DNA of 64,000 nt from NCBI GenBank assembly GCA_050949315.1, contig JBMNFL010000001.1, positions 128,001 through 192,000 on the forward strand, given 5' to 3'. How positions within the stretch are numbered: the stretch's first letter is position 1; each line of letters starts with the position of its first letter. Made by a program: the position numbers and the translations under genes. The DNA is from Bacilli bacterium. Its GTDB lineage: Bacteria > Bacillota_I > Bacilli_A > RFN20 > UBA1709. Below are positions 3,368-60,985 of the stretch, piece by piece. Under the pieces are notes generated by a model that saw only the letters and a program-made list of their open reading frames with translations, was not told the DNA's origin and did not search any database.

Positions 3368-4792
3368 GTGCCTAAACAATTTTCAACTTATCTACAAGCC
3401 AAGTTACCTTTACTAGAAAAATTGCTGGCCAAACTGGCTGAAAGATATGCCTATTGTTCAATTTTGGGCTGTGATTCGCAGGGGAAGTCTATCGCGGTCC
3501 TTACTAATTCTACTATTATTAATGACAATCCTTTTGCCGAACGCGGTTTTGTTATTCGTGTTCATAACGGTCTCAATTATGCGGAATATTCATTTAACGA
3601 ACTCAGTGAAGAAAATATAGCAACCATCCTTAAGAAAGTTGCAACTGAGTTAGAGTTAAGCGAAGAATATAAACAGTCAAAAGCTATCAAATTAGAAGAA
3701 TACAAACTCTTTGAAGAAGAAAAGATTCGTCAAGATTTCAAGCGGGTTTATCAAGGAGAGAAACCGCCACTTGCTACTGTTGTCAATAGACTAAGCGCAG
3801 TTAAAGATCACTTACAAAAAAGAGAAAATGTCCTCAATGCCACTGTTAATTATCAACAATTAGATATCAGCAAATGTTTTCTTTCCAAAGATAAACACTT
3901 AACCCAGTTTTATAGTTGGGCGGTAGGTGTTGTCGCGGCCTTAGTTAAAAAGGAAGAGGATGTGCGCTATTCTTATGTTTCAAGTTCCGGTGTTGAGCCC
4001 AATCAAGTCTTGAAGGAGTTGGATGATTTAGAAGCTAAGGCCTATCAGGATGCTATGGATTTGCTGGGAAGTTTACCGCCTAAAGCTGGTGTTTATGATA
4101 TTATCGCTTGTCCGGATATCACCGGTTTAATCGCCCATGAGGCCTTTGGTCATGGGGTTGAGATGGATATGTTTGTTAAAGGCCGGGCCAAAGGTCAGGA
4201 GTATCTTAATAAAAGGGTGGCCTCTGATTTAGTGACTATGCATGAGGGGGCCAAGGGCGAACAATTACAAGTATCCTCATATTTCTTTGATGATGAGGGA
4301 AACTTAGCCCAAGACACGATTGAAATCTCTAAAGGTATTCTCAAAACTGGAGTCAGTGATGCTTTATCGGCTTTAATTTTAGGGACGAAACCAACAGGGA
4401 ATGGTAAGCGTCAATCCTTTGAACGCAAGGCCTACGCAAGAATGACGGCCACGTATTTTGAAGCAGGTAAACACAGTTTAGAAGAGATGATTGCCTCAAT
4501 TAAGGAGGGCTTTTTGATCAGTGTTGGTTATAGCGGTATGGAGGATCCCAAAAATTGGGGTATCCAACTGGCGGCCTTGATAGGACGGGAGATCAAAGAT
4601 GGTAAATTAACCGGTAAAGTAGTCTCACCGATTATGATGACTGGTTATGTCCCTGATTTATTGGGTTCTATTTCTATGCTCAGTGACTCGGTTGAACTTT
4701 TTGGGTCGGGAATGTGTGGTAAAGGTTATAAAGAATGGGTCAAAGTCTCCGATGGTGGACCCTATTTGAAAGCGCGGGTGAATATAGGATGA
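3368..4792 (+). CDS. tldD: TldD/PmbA family metalloprotease, catalytic subunit
   Basis: HEAFGHGVEMD zinc motif, FDDEG, TGNGKRQ, C-terminal GMCGK. Confidence 0.9.
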   Translation: MPKQFSTYLQAKLPLLEKLLAKLAERYAYCSILGCDSQGKSIAVLTNSTIINDNPFAERGFVIRVHNGLNYAEYSFNELSEENIATILKKVATELELSEEYKQSKAIKLEEYKLFEEEKIRQDFKRVYQGEKPPLATVVNRLSAVKDHLQKRENVLNATVNYQQLDISKCFLSKDKHLTQFYSWAVGVVAALVKKEEDVRYSYVSSSGVEPNQVLKELDDLEAKAYQDAMDLLGSLPPKAGVYDIIACPDITGLIAHEAFGHGVEMDMFVKGRAKGQEYLNKRVASDLVTMHEGAKGEQLQVSSYFFDDEGNLAQDTIEISKGILKTGVSDALSALILGTKPTGNGKRQSFERKAYARMTATYFEAGKHSLEEMIASIKEGFLISVGYSGMEDPKNWGIQLAALIGREIKDGKLTGKVVSPIMMTGYVPDLLGSISMLSDSVELFGSGMCGKGYKEWVKVSDGGPYLKARVNIG

Positions 4793-6078
4793 TTGAACTT
4801 ATTAAAAAGGTTTTAGCCACTTATCCTCAGGTTGAGTGGACAATCAATGAGGAGAGTGTTTCTTCTTATGAGTTATTTTTTGTTCGGCGTTTACTGCAGA
4901 TGAATAGGGCTAAAGATGTTAAACACTATAGGCTCAGTGTCTATGTTGAACAAGCTGGTTTTAAGGGAACGGCTGATTTTGCAATTCATCCTGGTGCGAA
5001 AGAAGAGGAAGTAAAAAGATTGATCGAGGAAGGTGTCTACGCTGCCTCTTTAGCTAAGAACAAGACTTTTGTCTTGCCTAGCCCAAAAAAGCTTAAACTT
5101 AAGAGCCGAGTGTCAAATATGGATGAGCAAGAACTTTCTGTGTTGGCTTTAAGGATTGCCGAGGCGGTTTTTAAAAATGATACCGAAGAAAAAGGTTTCT
5201 TAAATGCCACAGAGGTCTTTGTCAACCGCAAGTCTTTGCGGGTCTATAATTCTAACGGAATTGATTATAGTAAGACCTCCACTGAGGGACAGGTAGAATA
5301 TATAACAACCTATAGGGGTTCTAAAGAAGAGATTGAACTCTATCGTTTCTTAGAGTTTACCGATTTCTCGGCCGCAAGAATTGCCGCTGATGTCAAAGAA
5401 CAGTTTAGGATTGCTAAATATCGGGCGGAAGCTAAGGAAATGAAGAATTTCACCAATATCAATGTCGTCTTTAATGCCGCGGACATCCGCGAGTTAATGA
5501 ATTACTATTATTGTATGCGTAGCAATGTGCGAAACATCTATAATCATAGTTCTGATTGGCAGGTAGGCGTGGCGGTTCAAGATTTAGACGCCAAAGGCGA
5601 TAAGTTAAATCTTAGCCTTAACCCTGATCAAAAAGGCTCGACTGGAAACTGTCCTTTTGATCGTCTGGGTTCTAGCAATGAAAAGGTGGAGATAATTAAA
5701 GATGGCAAGGTCGCGGCTCTTTGGGGTTCTAGTATTTATGGACAATATCTTGGTTATGAGACCAAGGTTAATACCAATAACGTGGAACTTGGTTTAGGAA
5801 GTTTAAGTGATGAAGACTTAGAAAAAGAGCCTTATTTAGAGTTGTTATCCCTGTCGGGTTTACAGGTTGATGATGTGACAGGTAGTTTTGGTAGTGAAAT
5901 TCGTCTAGCACTCTATCATGAAAAGGGTAAGATCACGCCTTATTATGGCAGTTCAATCAACGGCTTTTTAAAGGAAGTCAGTTCTTCTTGGCAGTTCAGC
6001 CAGCAAAAAGTCCAAATAAACCATTATCATGGTCCGAAAAAACTTCTAATAAAAGGTGTTAATATTTTCGGAAAGTAA
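4789..6078 (+). CDS. TldD-related (TldE/PmbA-like) non-catalytic partner
   Basis: ATGA overlap with tldD. Similar length, PFDRLG/IIKDGKV/TGSFGSEIRLA motifs, no HExxH. Confidence 0.8.
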   Translation: MIELIKKVLATYPQVEWTINEESVSSYELFFVRRLLQMNRAKDVKHYRLSVYVEQAGFKGTADFAIHPGAKEEEVKRLIEEGVYAASLAKNKTFVLPSPKKLKLKSRVSNMDEQELSVLALRIAEAVFKNDTEEKGFLNATEVFVNRKSLRVYNSNGIDYSKTSTEGQVEYITTYRGSKEEIELYRFLEFTDFSAARIAADVKEQFRIAKYRAEAKEMKNFTNINVVFNAADIRELMNYYYCMRSNVRNIYNHSSDWQVGVAVQDLDAKGDKLNLSLNPDQKGSTGNCPFDRLGSSNEKVEIIKDGKVAALWGSSIYGQYLGYETKVNTNNVELGLGSLSDEDLEKEPYLELLSLSGLQVDDVTGSFGSEIRLALYHEKGKITPYYGSSINGFLKEVSSSWQFSQQKVQINHYHGPKKLLIKGVNIFGK

Positions 6079-6096
6079 GCATAAGAGTTTTCTTGA

Positions 6097-6125
6097 GGGA
6101 GTGGAGATAATTCTACTCCTTTTTA
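6097..6125 (+). terminator. Probable intrinsic terminator after the tld pair
   Basis: GGAGTGGA-loop-TCTACTCC followed by a T run. Confidence 0.6.
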
Positions 6126-6181
6126 TTTTGATAAAAATGGTTTATTTTATAGAAATTTGTTATACTAAAAAAGGTGATCTT

Positions 6182-6685
6182 ATGCTCAATTTTATTGCGC
6201 AGCGCCGCCACGATGAATGTGGTCTTGCCTGCATGTTAATGATTTTGCAGTATTATGATTGTCCTTTAAATTATTTAGCTCTGCGTTTTTTAAGCCCTAA
6301 GCAGCCATCTTTTTATGACATGCATTATCTCTTTTGTTTATTAGGATTAACATCAAGTTCCTATTTGGTGAAGGATTGTGCTTTAAAAAGAATTGATACT
6401 CTACCGGTAATTCTGCACTTGCGGGGCTTTTTTGCTTGTCATTATGTGGTTTTAGAAAAGATAGAAGGAAAGAAGGCCTTGGTAGCAAATCCTGCTGCTT
6501 TTGGCAAGCGCTTTATGAGTTTAAAGAAATTACAAAGAGTTTGGACGGGTTATTATTTAGTGGTCAAAGGGCCGAAAATAAGTTCAAAAAAGTTGCCAGC
6601 ATCTTTGGCTTATCCCTGGCGTTTTTTGGCTAGCACACTTTTACTTACGGCTTTGTTCTTCTTTTTATTTTGTTGGCTTTTTTAA
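6182..6685 (+). CDS. Standalone C39-family cysteine peptidase domain protein with C-terminal TM helix
   Basis: AQRRHDECGLACMLMILQYY, LPVILH, HYVVL, ANPA and WTGYYL motifs; hydrophobic C-terminus. Start ATG 6182 after AAGGTG. Confidence 0.8.
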   Translation: MLNFIAQRRHDECGLACMLMILQYYDCPLNYLALRFLSPKQPSFYDMHYLFCLLGLTSSSYLVKDCALKRIDTLPVILHLRGFFACHYVVLEKIEGKKALVANPAAFGKRFMSLKKLQRVWTGYYLVVKGPKISSKKLPASLAYPWRFLASTLLLTALFFFLFCWLF

Positions 6686-6712: not shown

Positions 6713-7189
6713 ATGAGAATTAAGATTCATTATCAGAATGAGTTAGAACAAAAACTCGTTGGCTACCAGAAACTTTTTCGGCAAATTTCTCTTGTCGTTT
6801 TTGCCCATGAAAGAATGGGTGGCAGTTATGAATTATCGCTTAGTATTGTGAGCGAAGAAAAGATCAGGGAATTTAATAGGACTTATCGAGCAATTGATGA
6901 GGTTACTGATGTTTTGAGCTTTGCTCAACTAGAGGGGGTAAACTATACCTTACCTAAGGATATGCCCTTACCTTTAGGGGATATTTTAATATGTTATAAT
7001 CAGGCTAAAAAGCAGGCTAGCGCCTATGGCCATAGTATCCGTCGCGAGATGGCTTTCCTTTTCACTCACGGCCTTTTACACCTTTTAGGCTATGATCATA
7101 TGAATGAGAAAGATGAGAAAAAAATGTTTACTCTTCAAGAAAGAATTTTGAATAAGTTGGGTATTAGGAAACAAGAAAGATATGTTTAA
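6713..7189 (+). CDS. ybeY: rRNA maturation endoribonuclease YbeY
   Basis: TDVLSF, LGDILIC, HGLLHLLGYDH. Confidence 0.97.
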   Translation: MRIKIHYQNELEQKLVGYQKLFRQISLVVFAHERMGGSYELSLSIVSEEKIREFNRTYRAIDEVTDVLSFAQLEGVNYTLPKDMPLPLGDILICYNQAKKQASAYGHSIRREMAFLFTHGLLHLLGYDHMNEKDEKKMFTLQERILNKLGIRKQERYV

Positions 7190-7313
7190 AAAAACTAAAA
7201 TCCTTATTTAAAAAACGCAAAAATACTTATCTTTTATTACATGCGTGGCTACTGCAAACTAAAATATAATAAAAGATATTGAGATTTGTTTAGCCCAATT
7301 TGTTTTGTGTTTA

Positions 7314-7348
7314 TACAGTGACATTTACAGTGACATTTACAGTGACAT
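7314..7348. repeat. 3x 12-bp tandem repeat TACAGTGACAT(T) over the promoter -35 region
   Basis: Copies start at 7314, 7326 and 7338. The middle copy supplies GTGACA (7330-7335) 17 bp before TATAAT (7353-7358). Confidence 0.95.
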
Positions 7349-7383
7349 ATTGTATAATAACAATTAGAAAAGGAGTGGTTTAT

Positions 7384-8724
7384 ATGAACTTAGGAATCGA
7401 GAATGAAACACTAGAATTCAAAAAATCCACAAGTGAATTAAAAGCTGCTATGAATGATATATGTGCAATGTTAAATAAGCACGGTTATGGCACATTATAT
7501 TTTGGTGTAAAACCTAATGGTCAAGTTTGCGGTCAAGAGATAAGCGCAAGTTCGCTCAATGATGTTGCTAGATGTATTAAATCAGCAATTAAACCCATGA
7601 TATATCCTCAAATTGATAGGGTTAATTTAGGTGGATTAGATGTGATAAAAGTAGAAGTCAAAGGAAATGAAAGACCTTATTCGTCCTATGGAAAATACTT
7701 CAAAAGAGTTCATGATAGGGCAGAAGATATTACTCCAGACGAATTAAAACATATGATGTTAAATAATGACTTTACTTCAATATGGGAAAATAATCTAACT
7801 CCATATGGATTAGATGATGTTGATTCAAATGCCCTTGAAAGTTTTTATAATAAATCAGTTGATTGTGGCAGATTGGAGCCATTAGAGAAATATAATGAAG
7901 AAGAATTGCTTGCAATTTTAGGCTTGTATAAAGATGGCAAACTAAATAATGCGGGTTATTTTTTATTCTCATCAAAAGAACCGGTTGTTTTAAAAATGGC
8001 TGTTTATGTTACTGATGCTAGACTCAATTTTTCGGATATAAATAGAGTTCATGGTAATATCTACAATTTAATTGATGTTGCAACTAAATATGTTATTAAC
8101 CATATGAATTGGAGAGTAGAATTTGATAGCAAAAGCACATCTAGAATTGAAATTCCAGAAGTACCAATTGTGGCGATAAGAGAAGCTGTGGTTAATGCTT
8201 TTGCTCATGCCAATTATCGTTCATTTACTGAACATGAAATTACCATTACACCAACTTTAATTGAAATATACAATCCCGGAGAATTTCCAGTGAATTACAA
8301 GCCAGAAGATTTCGCAACTAAAAGGATAGGTTCAATGCCCAGAAACAAAAAAATATTGGATGTATTATACAAGTCAAAGAATGTTGAAGTTCAAGGAAGT
8401 GGGTTGCGAAAAATATTCAATGAATGTAAAGAAAACGATACAAAATATGAATATGTCTTAAATGATTATGGATTTAGATTTGTATTCCATAGAAAAAATG
8501 TCACTGTAAACGTCACTCAAGATGTCACTGTAAAACTAATTAGAACCGACTATGAAGTTTTGAATTTATTGAAACAAAATCCTGAAAGCACGCGGGATGT
8601 AATGGCGCGGAAAATTGGCAAAACCGTTAGAACAATTCAAAGGTCATTAAACAGATTAACAAAAGCCGGGAAAATTGTTAGAATAGGTGGTGACAAGACT
8701 GGCTATTGGGAGATAATAGTCTAG
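7384..8724 (+). CDS. AlbA_2 (Schlafen-like) domain + ATP-binding (RecG-C/HATPase-like) + C-terminal winged HTH protein
   Basis: ENETLEFKKS...ICAMLNKHGYGTLYFGVKPNG (AlbA_2); AIREAVVNAFAHANY, IEIYNPG, PRNKKI, GSGLRKI; C-terminal HTH ...TVRTIQRSLNRL...IVRIGGDKTGYWEII. True start is ATG 7384 after AGGAG. Confidence 0.85.
   Translation: MNLGIENETLEFKKSTSELKAAMNDICAMLNKHGYGTLYFGVKPNGQVCGQEISASSLNDVARCIKSAIKPMIYPQIDRVNLGGLDVIKVEVKGNERPYSSYGKYFKRVHDRAEDITPDELKHMMLNNDFTSIWENNLTPYGLDDVDSNALESFYNKSVDCGRLEPLEKYNEEELLAILGLYKDGKLNNAGYFLFSSKEPVVLKMAVYVTDARLNFSDINRVHGNIYNLIDVATKYVINHMNWRVEFDSKSTSRIEIPEVPIVAIREAVVNAFAHANYRSFTEHEITITPTLIEIYNPGEFPVNYKPEDFATKRIGSMPRNKKILDVLYKSKNVEVQGSGLRKIFNECKENDTKYEYVLNDYGFRFVFHRKNVTVNVTQDVTVKLIRTDYEVLNLLKQNPESTRDVMARKIGKTVRTIQRSLNRLTKAGKIVRIGGDKTGYWEIIV
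8497..8532. repeat. Intragenic 3x 12-bp repeat (AATGTCACTGTA / AACGTCACTCAA / GATGTCACTGTA), the reverse complement of the promoter array
   Basis: Encodes NVTV-NVTQ-DVTV. ATGTCACTGTA is the reverse complement of TACAGTGACAT. Confidence 0.9.
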
Positions 8725-8780: not shown

Positions 8781-9188
8781 ATGATAAAACACTTAGATGA
8801 ATTAGTTAGGCAGGCTAAGCTTGCTCAAGCCAAGGCTTATGCGCCTTATTCAAAATTTAAAGTAGGGGCAGCTCTTATGTTAAGTGACCATAATTATATC
8901 CAAGGAGTTAATTGTGAAAATGCCTCTTATGGTTTAACTTGCTGTGCGGAGCGAGTGGCAATTTATAATGCCATCACCCAGGGTTATAGCAAGAAAGATA
9001 TTTTGGCTTTGGCTATCGTTAGTGATTCTACTGGCGATACTAGTCCTTGTGGGGCTTGCCGGCAGGTGATGTTTGAACTCTTAGATCCTAAAACCCCAGT
9101 TTATTGTGTCAATGCTAAGAATGAAGTTAAAGAATATCAGGTTGAGGATTTCTTGCCCCAGCCTTTTAATGCCGAGGGTTTGAAATAA
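8781..9188 (+). CDS. cdd: Cytidine deaminase
   Basis: AYAPYSKFKVGAAL, ENASYGLTCCAER, SPCGACRQ. Confidence 0.97.
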   Translation: MIKHLDELVRQAKLAQAKAYAPYSKFKVGAALMLSDHNYIQGVNCENASYGLTCCAERVAIYNAITQGYSKKDILALAIVSDSTGDTSPCGACRQVMFELLDPKTPVYCVNAKNEVKEYQVEDFLPQPFNAEGLK

Positions 9189-59050: not shown

Positions 59051-60985
59051 ATGAAAGAAACAAGAGAATTTCAAACAGAATCAAAAGAGTTACTCAATTT
59101 AATGATTAACTCCATCTATACCAACCGCGAGATTTTTTTACGCGAGTTAATCTCCAATGCTTCGGATGCTATTGATAAATATAAGTATCTTGCCTTGACA
59201 AGTAAGGGTAAGCTTCCGAGCAAGGATTATGAGATCCGTCTCATCAACGATGAGAAAGCTAGGACACTGACCATTATTGATAATGGCATCGGTATGAGCA
59301 AAGAAGAATTAATCAATAATCTTGGAACAATTGCTAAATCCGGTTCCAAGGATTTTATCAAAAAGTTTAAAGAAGCCCAAGAGCAGAAAGATATCAATAT
59401 CATCGGCCAATTTGGCGTAGGTTTTTATTCGGCCTTTATGGTGGCCGAAAAAATTGAGGTTCGCACCAAATCAGTAGATAGTGAAGCCTGTCTTTTTACT
59501 AGTTCGGGCCAAGATAGTTATACAATTGAAGATTGTGATAAAGAAGAGAGTGGAACCGAAATTAAACTCTATTTAAAGAAAACCAGTAAGAAAAAAGCAG
59601 AAGAAAGTGAAGATTTTGATCGCTTTTTAAGAAGTTATGAACTTGAACATTTAGTCAAGAAGTACAGTGATTATATTCGTTATCCTATCAAGATGAAAGT
59701 TAAAACTTCAAAGCCTAAACTCGATAAAGATGGCAAAGAAATTGAAGGCAAGTATGAGGACGTTATTGAAGATAAAGTTCTAAATTCGATGATACCCTTG
59801 TGGCGTAAGAATAAAAAAGATGTCAGTGATGAAGAATTAGCGGATTTTTACCGCAATAAATTTGCCGATTATGAAGAGCCTTTGTTTTCGGTGTTTCTCA
59901 AGGTTGATGGGCTAATCAATTATGATGCTTTGCTTTACGTTCCCTCCCATGCTCCCTATAACCTTTACAGTGACAACTATGAAAAGGGCTTGCAACTTTA
60001 TTCTAAGGGGATTTTTATCCAAGAAAAGTGTGCAGATTTAATTCCCGATTATCTCAAATTTGTGAAGGGTTTAGTGGATTCGGACACTTTCAATTTAAAC
60101 ATTTCGCGAGAACTATTACAAAAGTCTCCCGCTCTTAAAAAGATTGCGGATAATATTGAAAAGAAAATCGTTGATCGGCTCAAGGATTGTAAGAAAGAAG
60201 ACTACGATAAATATCTTAAATTTTGGGAAATCTTTGGTGAGCATATAAAATTCGGCATCTATAGCAGCTATGGGGTGAAGAAGGAACTTTTAAAGGATTT
60301 ATTAGTTTTTCGCTCCTTGTTAAATGAAGATAAATATATCTCCTTGAAAGATTATCAAGAGAAAATGCCCAAGGATCAGAAAGCAATCTATTTTGCCTCT
60401 GGTGAAACCATTGAGGGCATCAAATTATTACCCCAGATTGAAAAGTATAAAAAAGAAGGCAAAGATGTTCTCTTGCTAGATAAACGCATTGATGAATTCT
60501 GTTTACTTATGATGCGTGATTATGAGAAATTAGAGTTCAAATCTATCACGGCTGAAAATCAAGATGATTTATCAAAGGCCGATCAAGAGCGCTTAGACTT
60601 CTTAAATAAAGAGCATCAAGACTTCTTAAACACTTTGAAAGAAGGCTTAGGTGATTTAGTTGATCAGGTGAGTTTCTCGCTTAATTTAGTTGAAGCGCCG
60701 GTCTGTATTGCCACTAAAGAAGGCTTATCACTTGGGATGGAAAAAACCTTAAATGAACAGCCAGGAGCCTTTGAAAAAGTCAAGGCTAGTAAGGTCTTAA
60801 AAATCAATCCCGACCATGAGCTTTGTCAGGCGCTCCTTAAGTTTGAAACTGACAAAGAAACCCTTAAAAACTATGCCTCACTTCTGTATGAGGAAGCCAT
60901 GCTTTTAGAGGGCTTTGAGATTAAAAATCGTCAAGAGTTTGTAAAAAAGCTCAATGATTTGATGCTAAAATCATTAAATAAATAA
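59051..60985 (+). CDS. htpG: Molecular chaperone HtpG (Hsp90)
   Basis: FLRELISNASDA, DNGIGM, IGQFGVGFYSAF, LNISRELLQ. Confidence 0.98.
   Translation: MKETREFQTESKELLNLMINSIYTNREIFLRELISNASDAIDKYKYLALTSKGKLPSKDYEIRLINDEKARTLTIIDNGIGMSKEELINNLGTIAKSGSKDFIKKFKEAQEQKDINIIGQFGVGFYSAFMVAEKIEVRTKSVDSEACLFTSSGQDSYTIEDCDKEESGTEIKLYLKKTSKKKAEESEDFDRFLRSYELEHLVKKYSDYIRYPIKMKVKTSKPKLDKDGKEIEGKYEDVIEDKVLNSMIPLWRKNKKDVSDEELADFYRNKFADYEEPLFSVFLKVDGLINYDALLYVPSHAPYNLYSDNYEKGLQLYSKGIFIQEKCADLIPDYLKFVKGLVDSDTFNLNISRELLQKSPALKKIADNIEKKIVDRLKDCKKEDYDKYLKFWEIFGEHIKFGIYSSYGVKKELLKDLLVFRSLLNEDKYISLKDYQEKMPKDQKAIYFASGETIEGIKLLPQIEKYKKEGKDVLLLDKRIDEFCLLMMRDYEKLEFKSITAENQDDLSKADQERLDFLNKEHQDFLNTLKEGLGDLVDQVSFSLNLVEAPVCIATKEGLSLGMEKTLNEQPGAFEKVKASKVLKINPDHELCQALLKFETDKETLKNYASLLYEEAMLLEGFEIKNRQEFVKKLNDLMLKSLNK

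Follow-up and report, generated by a model that had tools for sequence, protein, structure and literature searches.

RESULTS

Mirrored repeat arrays at a Schlafen-type gene

The 64,000-nucleotide stretch of Bacilli DNA analyzed here, hereafter the window (positions 128,001 to 192,000 of contig JBMNFL010000001.1, assembly GCA_050949315.1), carries a gene for a 446-residue protein (7384 to 8724) whose predicted promoter is covered by a short tandem repeat array and whose own coding sequence holds a second array of the same period in the opposite orientation. All of the features described for this gene lie on the plus strand. The upstream array (7314 to 7349) is made of three 12-bp direct repeats, TACAGTGACATT at 7314 to 7325 and again at 7326 to 7337 and TACAGTGACATA at 7338 to 7349, which share the form TACAGTGACAT(T/A) and make up a putative primary operator; Tandem Repeats Finder reports 2.9 copies of period 12 with 100% matches over 7314 to 7348. 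The second array (8497 to 8532), a putative auxiliary intragenic operator, comprises AATGTCACTGTA (8497 to 8508), AACGTCACTCAA (8509 to 8520), and GATGTCACTGTA (8521 to 8532) and codes for the tetrapeptides NVTV-NVTQ-DVTV, residues 372 to 383 of the protein. Here Tandem Repeats Finder gives 3.2 copies of period 12 with 70% matches (8496 to 8534). Units 1 and 3 contain the exact reverse complement of the promoter 11-mer, and unit 2 differs at 3 of 12 positions. The arrays stand 1147 nt apart (7350 to 8496), and an inverted-repeat search recovers them as 46-nt arms (7311 to 7356 and 8490 to 8535) that are 83% complementary and 1133 nt apart. A previous reading of the DNA by a model that saw only the letters and their open reading frames (the sequence-only reading) had described both arrays and the encoded repeat in these terms, and the sequence bears it out.

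The mirrored arrays are genuine and far above chance. All five exact copies of the 11-mer in the window fall within the two arrays, compared with 0.00 occurrences in 100 shuffles. The 8-mer AGTGACAT is likewise confined to the arrays (5 copies versus 1.18 expected). Additional regulon sites were sought and rejected, as the 8-mer core is found nowhere else in the window and a 1-mismatch match at 59966 stands alone.

The upstream array is also part of a predicted sigma-70-type promoter (7330 to 7358). Among 18 sigma-70-like sites between 6600 and 9300, the top-scoring one is GTGACA-17-TATAAT, at 11/12; its −35 hexamer (7330 to 7335) is the core of the middle repeat unit, its 17-nt spacer contains the third unit, and its −10 hexamer lies at 7353 to 7358. 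The same −35 element had been named in the sequence-only reading. We read a ribosome-binding site, AAGGAG, at 7370 to 7375, 8 nt 5' of the ATG.

The open reading frame, Pfam matches, and homologues together give the architecture of the protein as a Schlafen/AlbA_2 domain, a HATPase_c_4 (GHKL-type) ATPase domain, a linker, and a winged helix-turn-helix (HTH) domain. SLFN_AlbA_2 (PF04326) matches residues 6 to 114 at 75 bits (cutoff, 25.3). The translated N terminus, E6-N-E-T-L-E11-F-K13 (7399 to 7422), fits the Ex4(E/D)xK motif, and conservation of E6, E11, and K13 in the homologue alignment A1 is 90% or higher. HATPase_c_4 covers residues 285 to 354 (8236 to 8445; 42.9 bits; cutoff, 26), and HTH_24 covers residues 387 to 431 (8542 to 8676; 32.9 bits; cutoff, 21.9), with a recognition helix predicted from the structure model at residues 415 to 427 (8626 to 8664). 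The AlphaFold2 model of the full protein has a mean predicted local distance difference test (pLDDT) score of 84, but the repeat-encoded residues 373 to 382 fall below 50; the linker is thus predicted to be flexible, and a sequence dictated by the DNA should be tolerable there. Ex4(E/D)xK is the active-site motif of the prokaryotic Schlafen (pSlfn) nucleases, 19.2% of which (of 5,930) have the composition named HisKinase-HTH, according to the passages of PMC13056530 (Nat Microbiol 2026) consulted. From its domains and motif, the window protein belongs to this known class. NCBIfam and PADLOC scans of the protein yielded partial or subthreshold matches only; no PADLOC system model covers the whole protein, and its partial matches are to pAgo-associated and CARF/CasR HTH models.

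The linker repeat mirrors the gene's own promoter across homologous loci

We found 1267 homologues of the window protein at an E value of ≤0.001. Among the 120 matches listed, identity runs from 57 to 84%, and 59 of the 118 parsed homologues among them have linkers with two or more xVT units. A scan of genome contigs provided 80 loci with flanks, or 81 with the window included. Fifteen loci (L004, L007, L011, L027, L053, L057, L059, L060, L061, L064 to L068, and L075) were excluded for a truncated or fragmented match or for having less than 100 nt of upstream DNA, which leaves an analyzed set of 66 loci: the window and 65 homologous loci. Searching again with the L003 protein as the query added only 21 new proteins and zero new linker classes.

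Tandem repeats of ~12 bp lie just 5' of a TATAAT-like −10 element in nearly all 66 loci, with 2 to ~10 units per locus. A repeated core hexamer could be called upstream in 62 of the 66. In 47 of the 62, the best sigma-70-like promoter overlaps this core, and in 41 it has the core as its −35 hexamer; the promoter scores at least 10/12 in 52. The placement of a repeat unit at the −35 position therefore recurs well beyond the window. In L019, L021, L026, and L031, an extra inverted unit lies across or after the −10 element and makes palindromes of head-to-head units, as expected if these arrays act as protein operators. One clade (L035, L038, L041, L042, L045 to L047, L049, and L051) has GCGACA-core units, mostly in the opposite orientation, 5' of a separate TTGAAA −35 hexamer; its units do not form the −35, and its linker has no repeat. 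Paralogous Slfn-ATPase(-HTH) genes adjoin some family members (L045:783-2231, minus strand; L045:4452-5864, minus strand; L055:942-2564, minus strand; and L052:789-2135, plus strand). These four paralogues have upstream tandem arrays of their own, built of different units (e.g., AGTGAACATGAT, TTTTGTACCACT, and TGTGCATTGG), and a matching linker array was found in none of them.

The linker array was compared with the upstream DNA of its own gene, a check that the sequence-only reading had proposed, and the match it foresaw is largely there. In 39 of the 66 loci, the linker contains a 7-mer that recurs at a spacing of 12 or 24 nt. When this 7-mer was picked blind to the upstream sequence, its reverse complement turned up in the gene's own upstream 150 nt in 24 of the 39 loci, and when the best repeated 7-mer was taken, in 33. 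The density of the blind-picked 7-mer is 8.7 per kb in the gene's own upstream DNA, compared with 0.29 elsewhere in the gene and 0.15 in the far flanks. Sliding 96-nt windows along each gene, compared with its own upstream 150 nt, gave the linker as the best inverted window in 28 of 66 loci (chance, ~7.8%) and as the best direct window in 10 of 66. When each gene was compared with the reverse complement of the 300 nt upstream of it, the longest exact match lay in the linker in many loci; it is 15 nt long in the window, L002, and L015, 16 nt in L025, and 17 nt in L021. Wherever a linker array exists, it is inverted relative to the promoter array. Its copy number in relatives is 2 to 4 units, with an expanded variant in L001.

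L081, a plasmid-borne locus (NZ_LR215046.1; 69% identity), has a linker that mirrors its promoter as well. A block of ~50 nt directly 5' of the arrays is common to L081, L002, and L003, which are different records. The L081 gene sits between a divergent hsdS gene and hsdR and adjoins a tyrosine recombinase, a setting that resembles a phase-variable type I restriction locus.

Cores, recognition helices, and codons

The two arrays of a locus change their cores together. Upstream and linker cores agree in 28 of the 31 loci in which both were called (17 GTGACA, 10 TGGACA, and 1 GTGCCA), and the other three are one base off. L003, with GTGCC upstream and GGCAC in the linker, and L056 share 13-mers between their arrays that are unlike the window's unit. 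The linker peptide tracks the core: NVT accompanies GTGACA, NGT accompanies GTGCCA (L003), NVQ accompanies TGGACA, and NVP or NVS accompanies GGGACA/GAGAC (L056). The HTH helix preceding an invariant R-T-x-Q-R also differs by lineage. GTGACA loci mostly have K/R-T-V-R-T-x-Q-R, while the corresponding stretch is K-S-E-K-T-V-Q-R in the TGGACA clade, R-T-R-K-T-V-T-R in L056, and S-K-S-T-V-A-R-A in L033; proteins with NGT-type linkers have K-G-A or K-S-V.

Codon usage places the constraint at the level of DNA. Of the 57 Val codons in xVT units of the linkers, 53 are GTC, a codon used for 325 of 1699 Val residues elsewhere (Fisher P = 4e-32). In the same units, ACT serves for 45 of 57 Thr residues (463 of 1472 elsewhere) and AAT for 40 of 42 Asn residues (1159 of 1686 elsewhere). 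In the loci in which the DNA motif has been lost, the linker peptide is unrelated. Taken together, this codon bias and the unrelated peptides argue that the conserved object is the DNA rather than the peptide, and the NVT-type peptide would then be largely a passenger of a DNA-level constraint.

Genomic context

The window gene lies between ybeY (6713 to 7189) and cdd (8781 to 9188), all on the same strand, and looks like a single-gene insertion in a row of housekeeping genes. By Pfam, its upstream neighbors are a PmbA/TldD-like gene, a C39 peptidase-like open reading frame (ORF), and ybeY, with cdd downstream; beyond cdd, translations indicate era, recO, and a glycyl-tRNA synthetase gene. No convincing terminator was found on either side of the gene. 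A 23-nt tandem repeat (2.0 copies, 83% matches; 7185 to 7230) lies immediately past the ybeY stop codon. The PmbA/TldD-like ORF (4735 to 6078) is overlapped at its end by the Peptidase_C39-like ORF (6056 to 6685), an arrangement that recalls peptide-maturation genes.

Flanking genes are highly variable between homologous loci. Among the flanking ORFs that were scanned (101 of 115), AAA_14/DUF4143 ATPases account for 12, in nine loci (L009, L015, L020, L022, L026, L041, L051, L054, and L062); these ATPase genes and the Schlafen-ATPase-HTH family may be common to variable islands. Paralogous Slfn or HATPase_c_4 ORFs account for six (five loci) and integrases or recombinases for another six, and AbiTii, HipA, Fic, and DpnII domains appear once each. 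Since no partner gene is conserved, the gene and its two arrays look self-contained.

DISCUSSION

A putative operator system written partly into coding DNA

A consensus promoter with a −35 hexamer and spacer made of repeat units, together with the covariation of HTH helix and repeat core, points to autorepression of the gene by its own HTH. The comparative data support the proposal that the HTH of the protein uses both arrays as operators, the one inside the gene being a putative auxiliary copy; we take this as the best reading, at about even odds. Under such a model, the 12-bp unit would be the binding site of the HTH, and protein bound upstream would occlude the −35 hexamer and spacer and repress its own synthesis. 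The intragenic array would serve as an auxiliary operator: protein bound there would raise local occupancy, self-associate, and bridge to the promoter array, closing a repression loop of the handcuffing type. Alternatively, protein on the intragenic array might act as a roadblock to elongating polymerase. The linker copy may always be inverted because direct repeats would invite deletion of the gene body. Self-control this tight would suit a potentially toxic nuclease effector. At the level of sequence, the arrangement has the hallmarks of a lac-like system, in that the putative operator overlaps the core promoter and a second copy lies 1147 nt away.

A number of observations weigh against this proposal. 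The linker array is missing in 27 of the 66 loci, although their upstream arrays are kept, and on a tree of the N-terminal 370 residues only, its presence changed at least 19 times; an element so often absent and so often gained or lost can evidently be dispensed with. In L001, the closest relative (82% identity), the linker repeat has diverged and expanded to (KDVA)n, and its match to the promoter is gone. The L001 gene (L001:3001-4410) is preceded by 8 to 10 upstream units of AAAGTGACATTT (L001:2840-3000), and its linker holds at least six KDVA units (AAAGATGTTGCT), each unit two substitutions away from the operator core. On the same tree, there are only two phylogenetically independent core switches, both concordant, plus the partial case of L056, and an independent-pair sign test would need at least six pairs to reach significance. 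Nor does a gene's own upstream region resemble its linker more than a relative's does: in 9-mer matches to the linker, the gene's own upstream DNA did better than that of the nearest same-class relative in 14 loci, worse in 11, and equally well in 9 (n = 34). Locus-specific coevolution beyond the core was on this count rejected as unsupported. Flanking triplets within the GTGAC class are concordant in 11 of 19 loci (shuffled mean, 3.9; 1 of 5000 shuffles reached 11) under a control that ignores relatedness, and given the comparison with relatives' upstream DNA, this concordance perhaps reflects shared ancestry. The core, being a −35-like hexamer, may also be conserved partly for promoter function alone, and a 12-bp period is off the helical repeat of DNA. 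Finally, four distant plasmid loci (L089, L090, L091, and L092; ~25% identity) have a linker unit but no partner array within ~20 kb. Their genes lie inside type I restriction-modification or glycosyltransferase operons and carry perfect 12-bp repeats encoding ATTE (×4), ERVN (×4), EKLG (×3), and TRVK (×3). These loci show that the idea does not hold for every tetrapeptide linker of this kind. The proposals of the sequence-only reading for the window gene are supported in part. For the linker as a DNA array for the protein's own HTH, the comparative match and codon constraint are in favor, and the loci without an array and the L001 mismatch are not; the expected covariation of linker, promoter, and HTH is seen in the agreement of the cores and the helix that differs with them, but the independent switches are too few for a test.

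We also considered a more elaborate version, in which the tetrapeptide-repeat linker is a cis-acting DNA address for the adjacent HTH and an ATP-dimerized form of the protein handcuffs both arrays, so that a 1.15-kb loop silences a potentially toxic nuclease; a rare crossover between the arrays would invert the body of the gene, leaving a nuclease that lacks the HTH and is unable to repress itself, and the peptide (NVT, NGT, NVQ, or NVP) would simply follow the operator. We offer it tentatively, as a doubtful elaboration.

Competing explanations

The best of the competing explanations, though in our judgment still an unlikely one, is that only the upstream array functions, as an operator or as part of the promoter, and that the linker array is a copy of it tolerated in a permissive linker, kept similar by occasional gene conversion and without a regulatory role. 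The repeated gain and loss of the linker array while upstream arrays persist, its absence from 27 loci, the slippage-expanded drift of the L001 linker away from the operator, and the predicted disorder of the linker are all what such a copy would lead one to expect. The linker units, however, keep codon-level identity across proteins that are 41 to 84% identical, which would take selection or else very frequent conversion. Homologous exchange works poorly between arrays of only 24 to 36 bp at a distance of 1.1 kb. Ongoing locus-specific homogenization is not evident either, as linkers resemble a relative's upstream DNA no less than that of their own gene.

The sequence-only reading had raised the alternative that the inverted arrays bound an invertible segment. 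Inversion of 7350 to 8496 would leave an array beside the −10 hexamer and the promoter intact, and it would join the nuclease-ATPase body to the inverted upstream flank to give an HTH-less protein that cannot repress itself. The geometry is suitable: the linker array is inverted in every locus that has one, the 46-nt arms (83% complementary) flank the segment, and the reverse complement of 7311 to 7349 reads in frame as YVTVNVTVNVTV and then meets a stop codon directly after the array. In silico, the tail past the array is short in general, with a median of 14 codons over 37 loci. We nonetheless consider a recombination switch improbable. The inverted arrangement was seen in 0 of 81 loci, the window included (assemblies show the majority form only), which leaves the alternative unsupported; arms of 36 to 46 nt at 83% are short; no recombinase was found among the window ORFs at 4.7 to 12.2 kb; and around the homologous loci, only 6 of the 101 scanned flanking ORFs are recombinases or integrases. 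A conserved alternative C-terminal module was not found in the 37 loci. With in-frame tails this short and no conserved open frame, a shufflon that swaps C-terminal modules by inversion was likewise rejected as unsupported.

An effect at the RNA level, in which a transcribed upstream array pairs with linker-coding RNA and a long-range duplex controls translation or stability, strikes us as very improbable. The arrays are complementary, and in the window, read-through transcripts could include the upstream array, there being no convincing terminator between ybeY and the array. The array carries the −35 hexamer in 41 of 62 loci, however, and so lies 5' of the gene's own predicted transcription start; moreover, several loci have both unit orientations upstream, and their units 3' of the −10 element have the same sense as the linker and cannot pair with it. 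The weakest explanation, an ordinary protein-level tetrapeptide VNTR (variable-number tandem repeat) whose likeness to the promoter repeat is due to chance or composition, has a precedent in the perfect 12-bp linker repeats of the distant homologues but is hardly credible for the window linker and, judging from sequence, already contradicted: the exact 11-mer is found five times when 0.00 is expected, the inverted match recurs in 24 to 33 of 39 loci, and cores change concordantly between lineages while synonymous sites stay fixed.

Several other candidates were tried and set aside. An antisense promoter in the linker array does not hold up, as a −10-like hexamer (at least 4/6, with A2 and T6) at 16 to 18 nt occurs in 1 of 34 loci, compared with a 24% background. 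That such hexamers are rarer than background in linker zones may reflect avoidance of spurious antisense promoters, in a comparison that does not control for relatedness. A relic of a divergent paralogue's linker was rejected because the upstream region and the gene are homologous only within the arrays and because the arrays sit at the −35 position in most loci. The ends of an insertion sequence (IS) or transposon were rejected on the grounds that the right arm lies within the coding sequence, before the HTH, and that Pfam found no transposase domain in the window protein.

Significance and comparison with known systems

If the arrays are operators of the encoded protein, they would represent a clear natural case of dual coding, in which a conserved peptide owes its existence to a DNA array that the adjacently encoded domain binds. 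The proposal would explain the puzzling NVT-type repeat linker in a large, uncharacterized class of bacterial Schlafen nuclease-ATPase-HTH proteins, and it would show how potentially toxic effectors stay silent. The window protein offers a directly testable candidate operator, the 12-mer TACAGTGACATT, and the lineage variants with GTGCCA and TGGACA cores permit specificity swaps. We found no description of paired promoter and linker arrays in the literature searched.

The nearest relatives in architecture are the pSlfn proteins of the HisKinase-HTH class, which, like the window protein, combine a Slfn/AlbA_2 domain bearing Ex4(E/D)xK, a histidine-kinase-like (GHKL) ATPase, and a C-terminal HTH. 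In the passages of PMC13056530 consulted, four architectures were tested, HisKinase-HTH not among them; the word "operator" is absent from those passages, and promoter or linker repeat arrays go unmentioned in them. The window gene stands among housekeeping genes (ybeY and cdd) and not in an obvious defense island. The distant AlbA_2-ATPase-HTH proteins in type I restriction-modification operons likewise have a 12-bp repeat between the ATPase and the HTH. Unlike those of the window, their repeats are perfect, which suggests recent slippage; their units are unrelated, their genes have no promoter region of their own, and a partner array is missing within ~20 kb.

IS elements have terminal inverted repeats and transposases that regulate their own synthesis. 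The window gene resembles them in that the gene stands between inverted repeats, with its promoter overlapped by the left one, and the HTH of the encoded protein would read both; it differs in that the right arm lies ~190 bp inside the gene, before the HTH part, in a protein without a detected (Pfam) transposase domain. A second likeness is to the iteron arrays that plasmid Rep proteins handcuff and to the winged-helix regulators PhoB and OmpR, which bind tandem direct repeats of ~11 to 22 bp. Shared with these systems are tandem repeats that winged-helix domains would bind, an overlap with the regulator's promoter, and paired arrays bridged, as we propose here, by protein. The present arrangement has no replication origin, its second array is inverted coding DNA, and the protein brings nuclease and GHKL ATPase domains.

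A close parallel for the regulation proposed here is the lac repressor, which uses auxiliary operators and DNA looping, with O2 lying inside lacZ. In both cases, a primary operator (here putative) at the promoter is joined by a second one within coding sequence at looping distance, and a single self-associating repressor would serve the two, although for the window protein binding is only predicted. The second site here is found within the gene of the regulator itself, where the DNA for the linker adjoins the part that encodes the HTH, and its three 12-bp units dictate the peptide.

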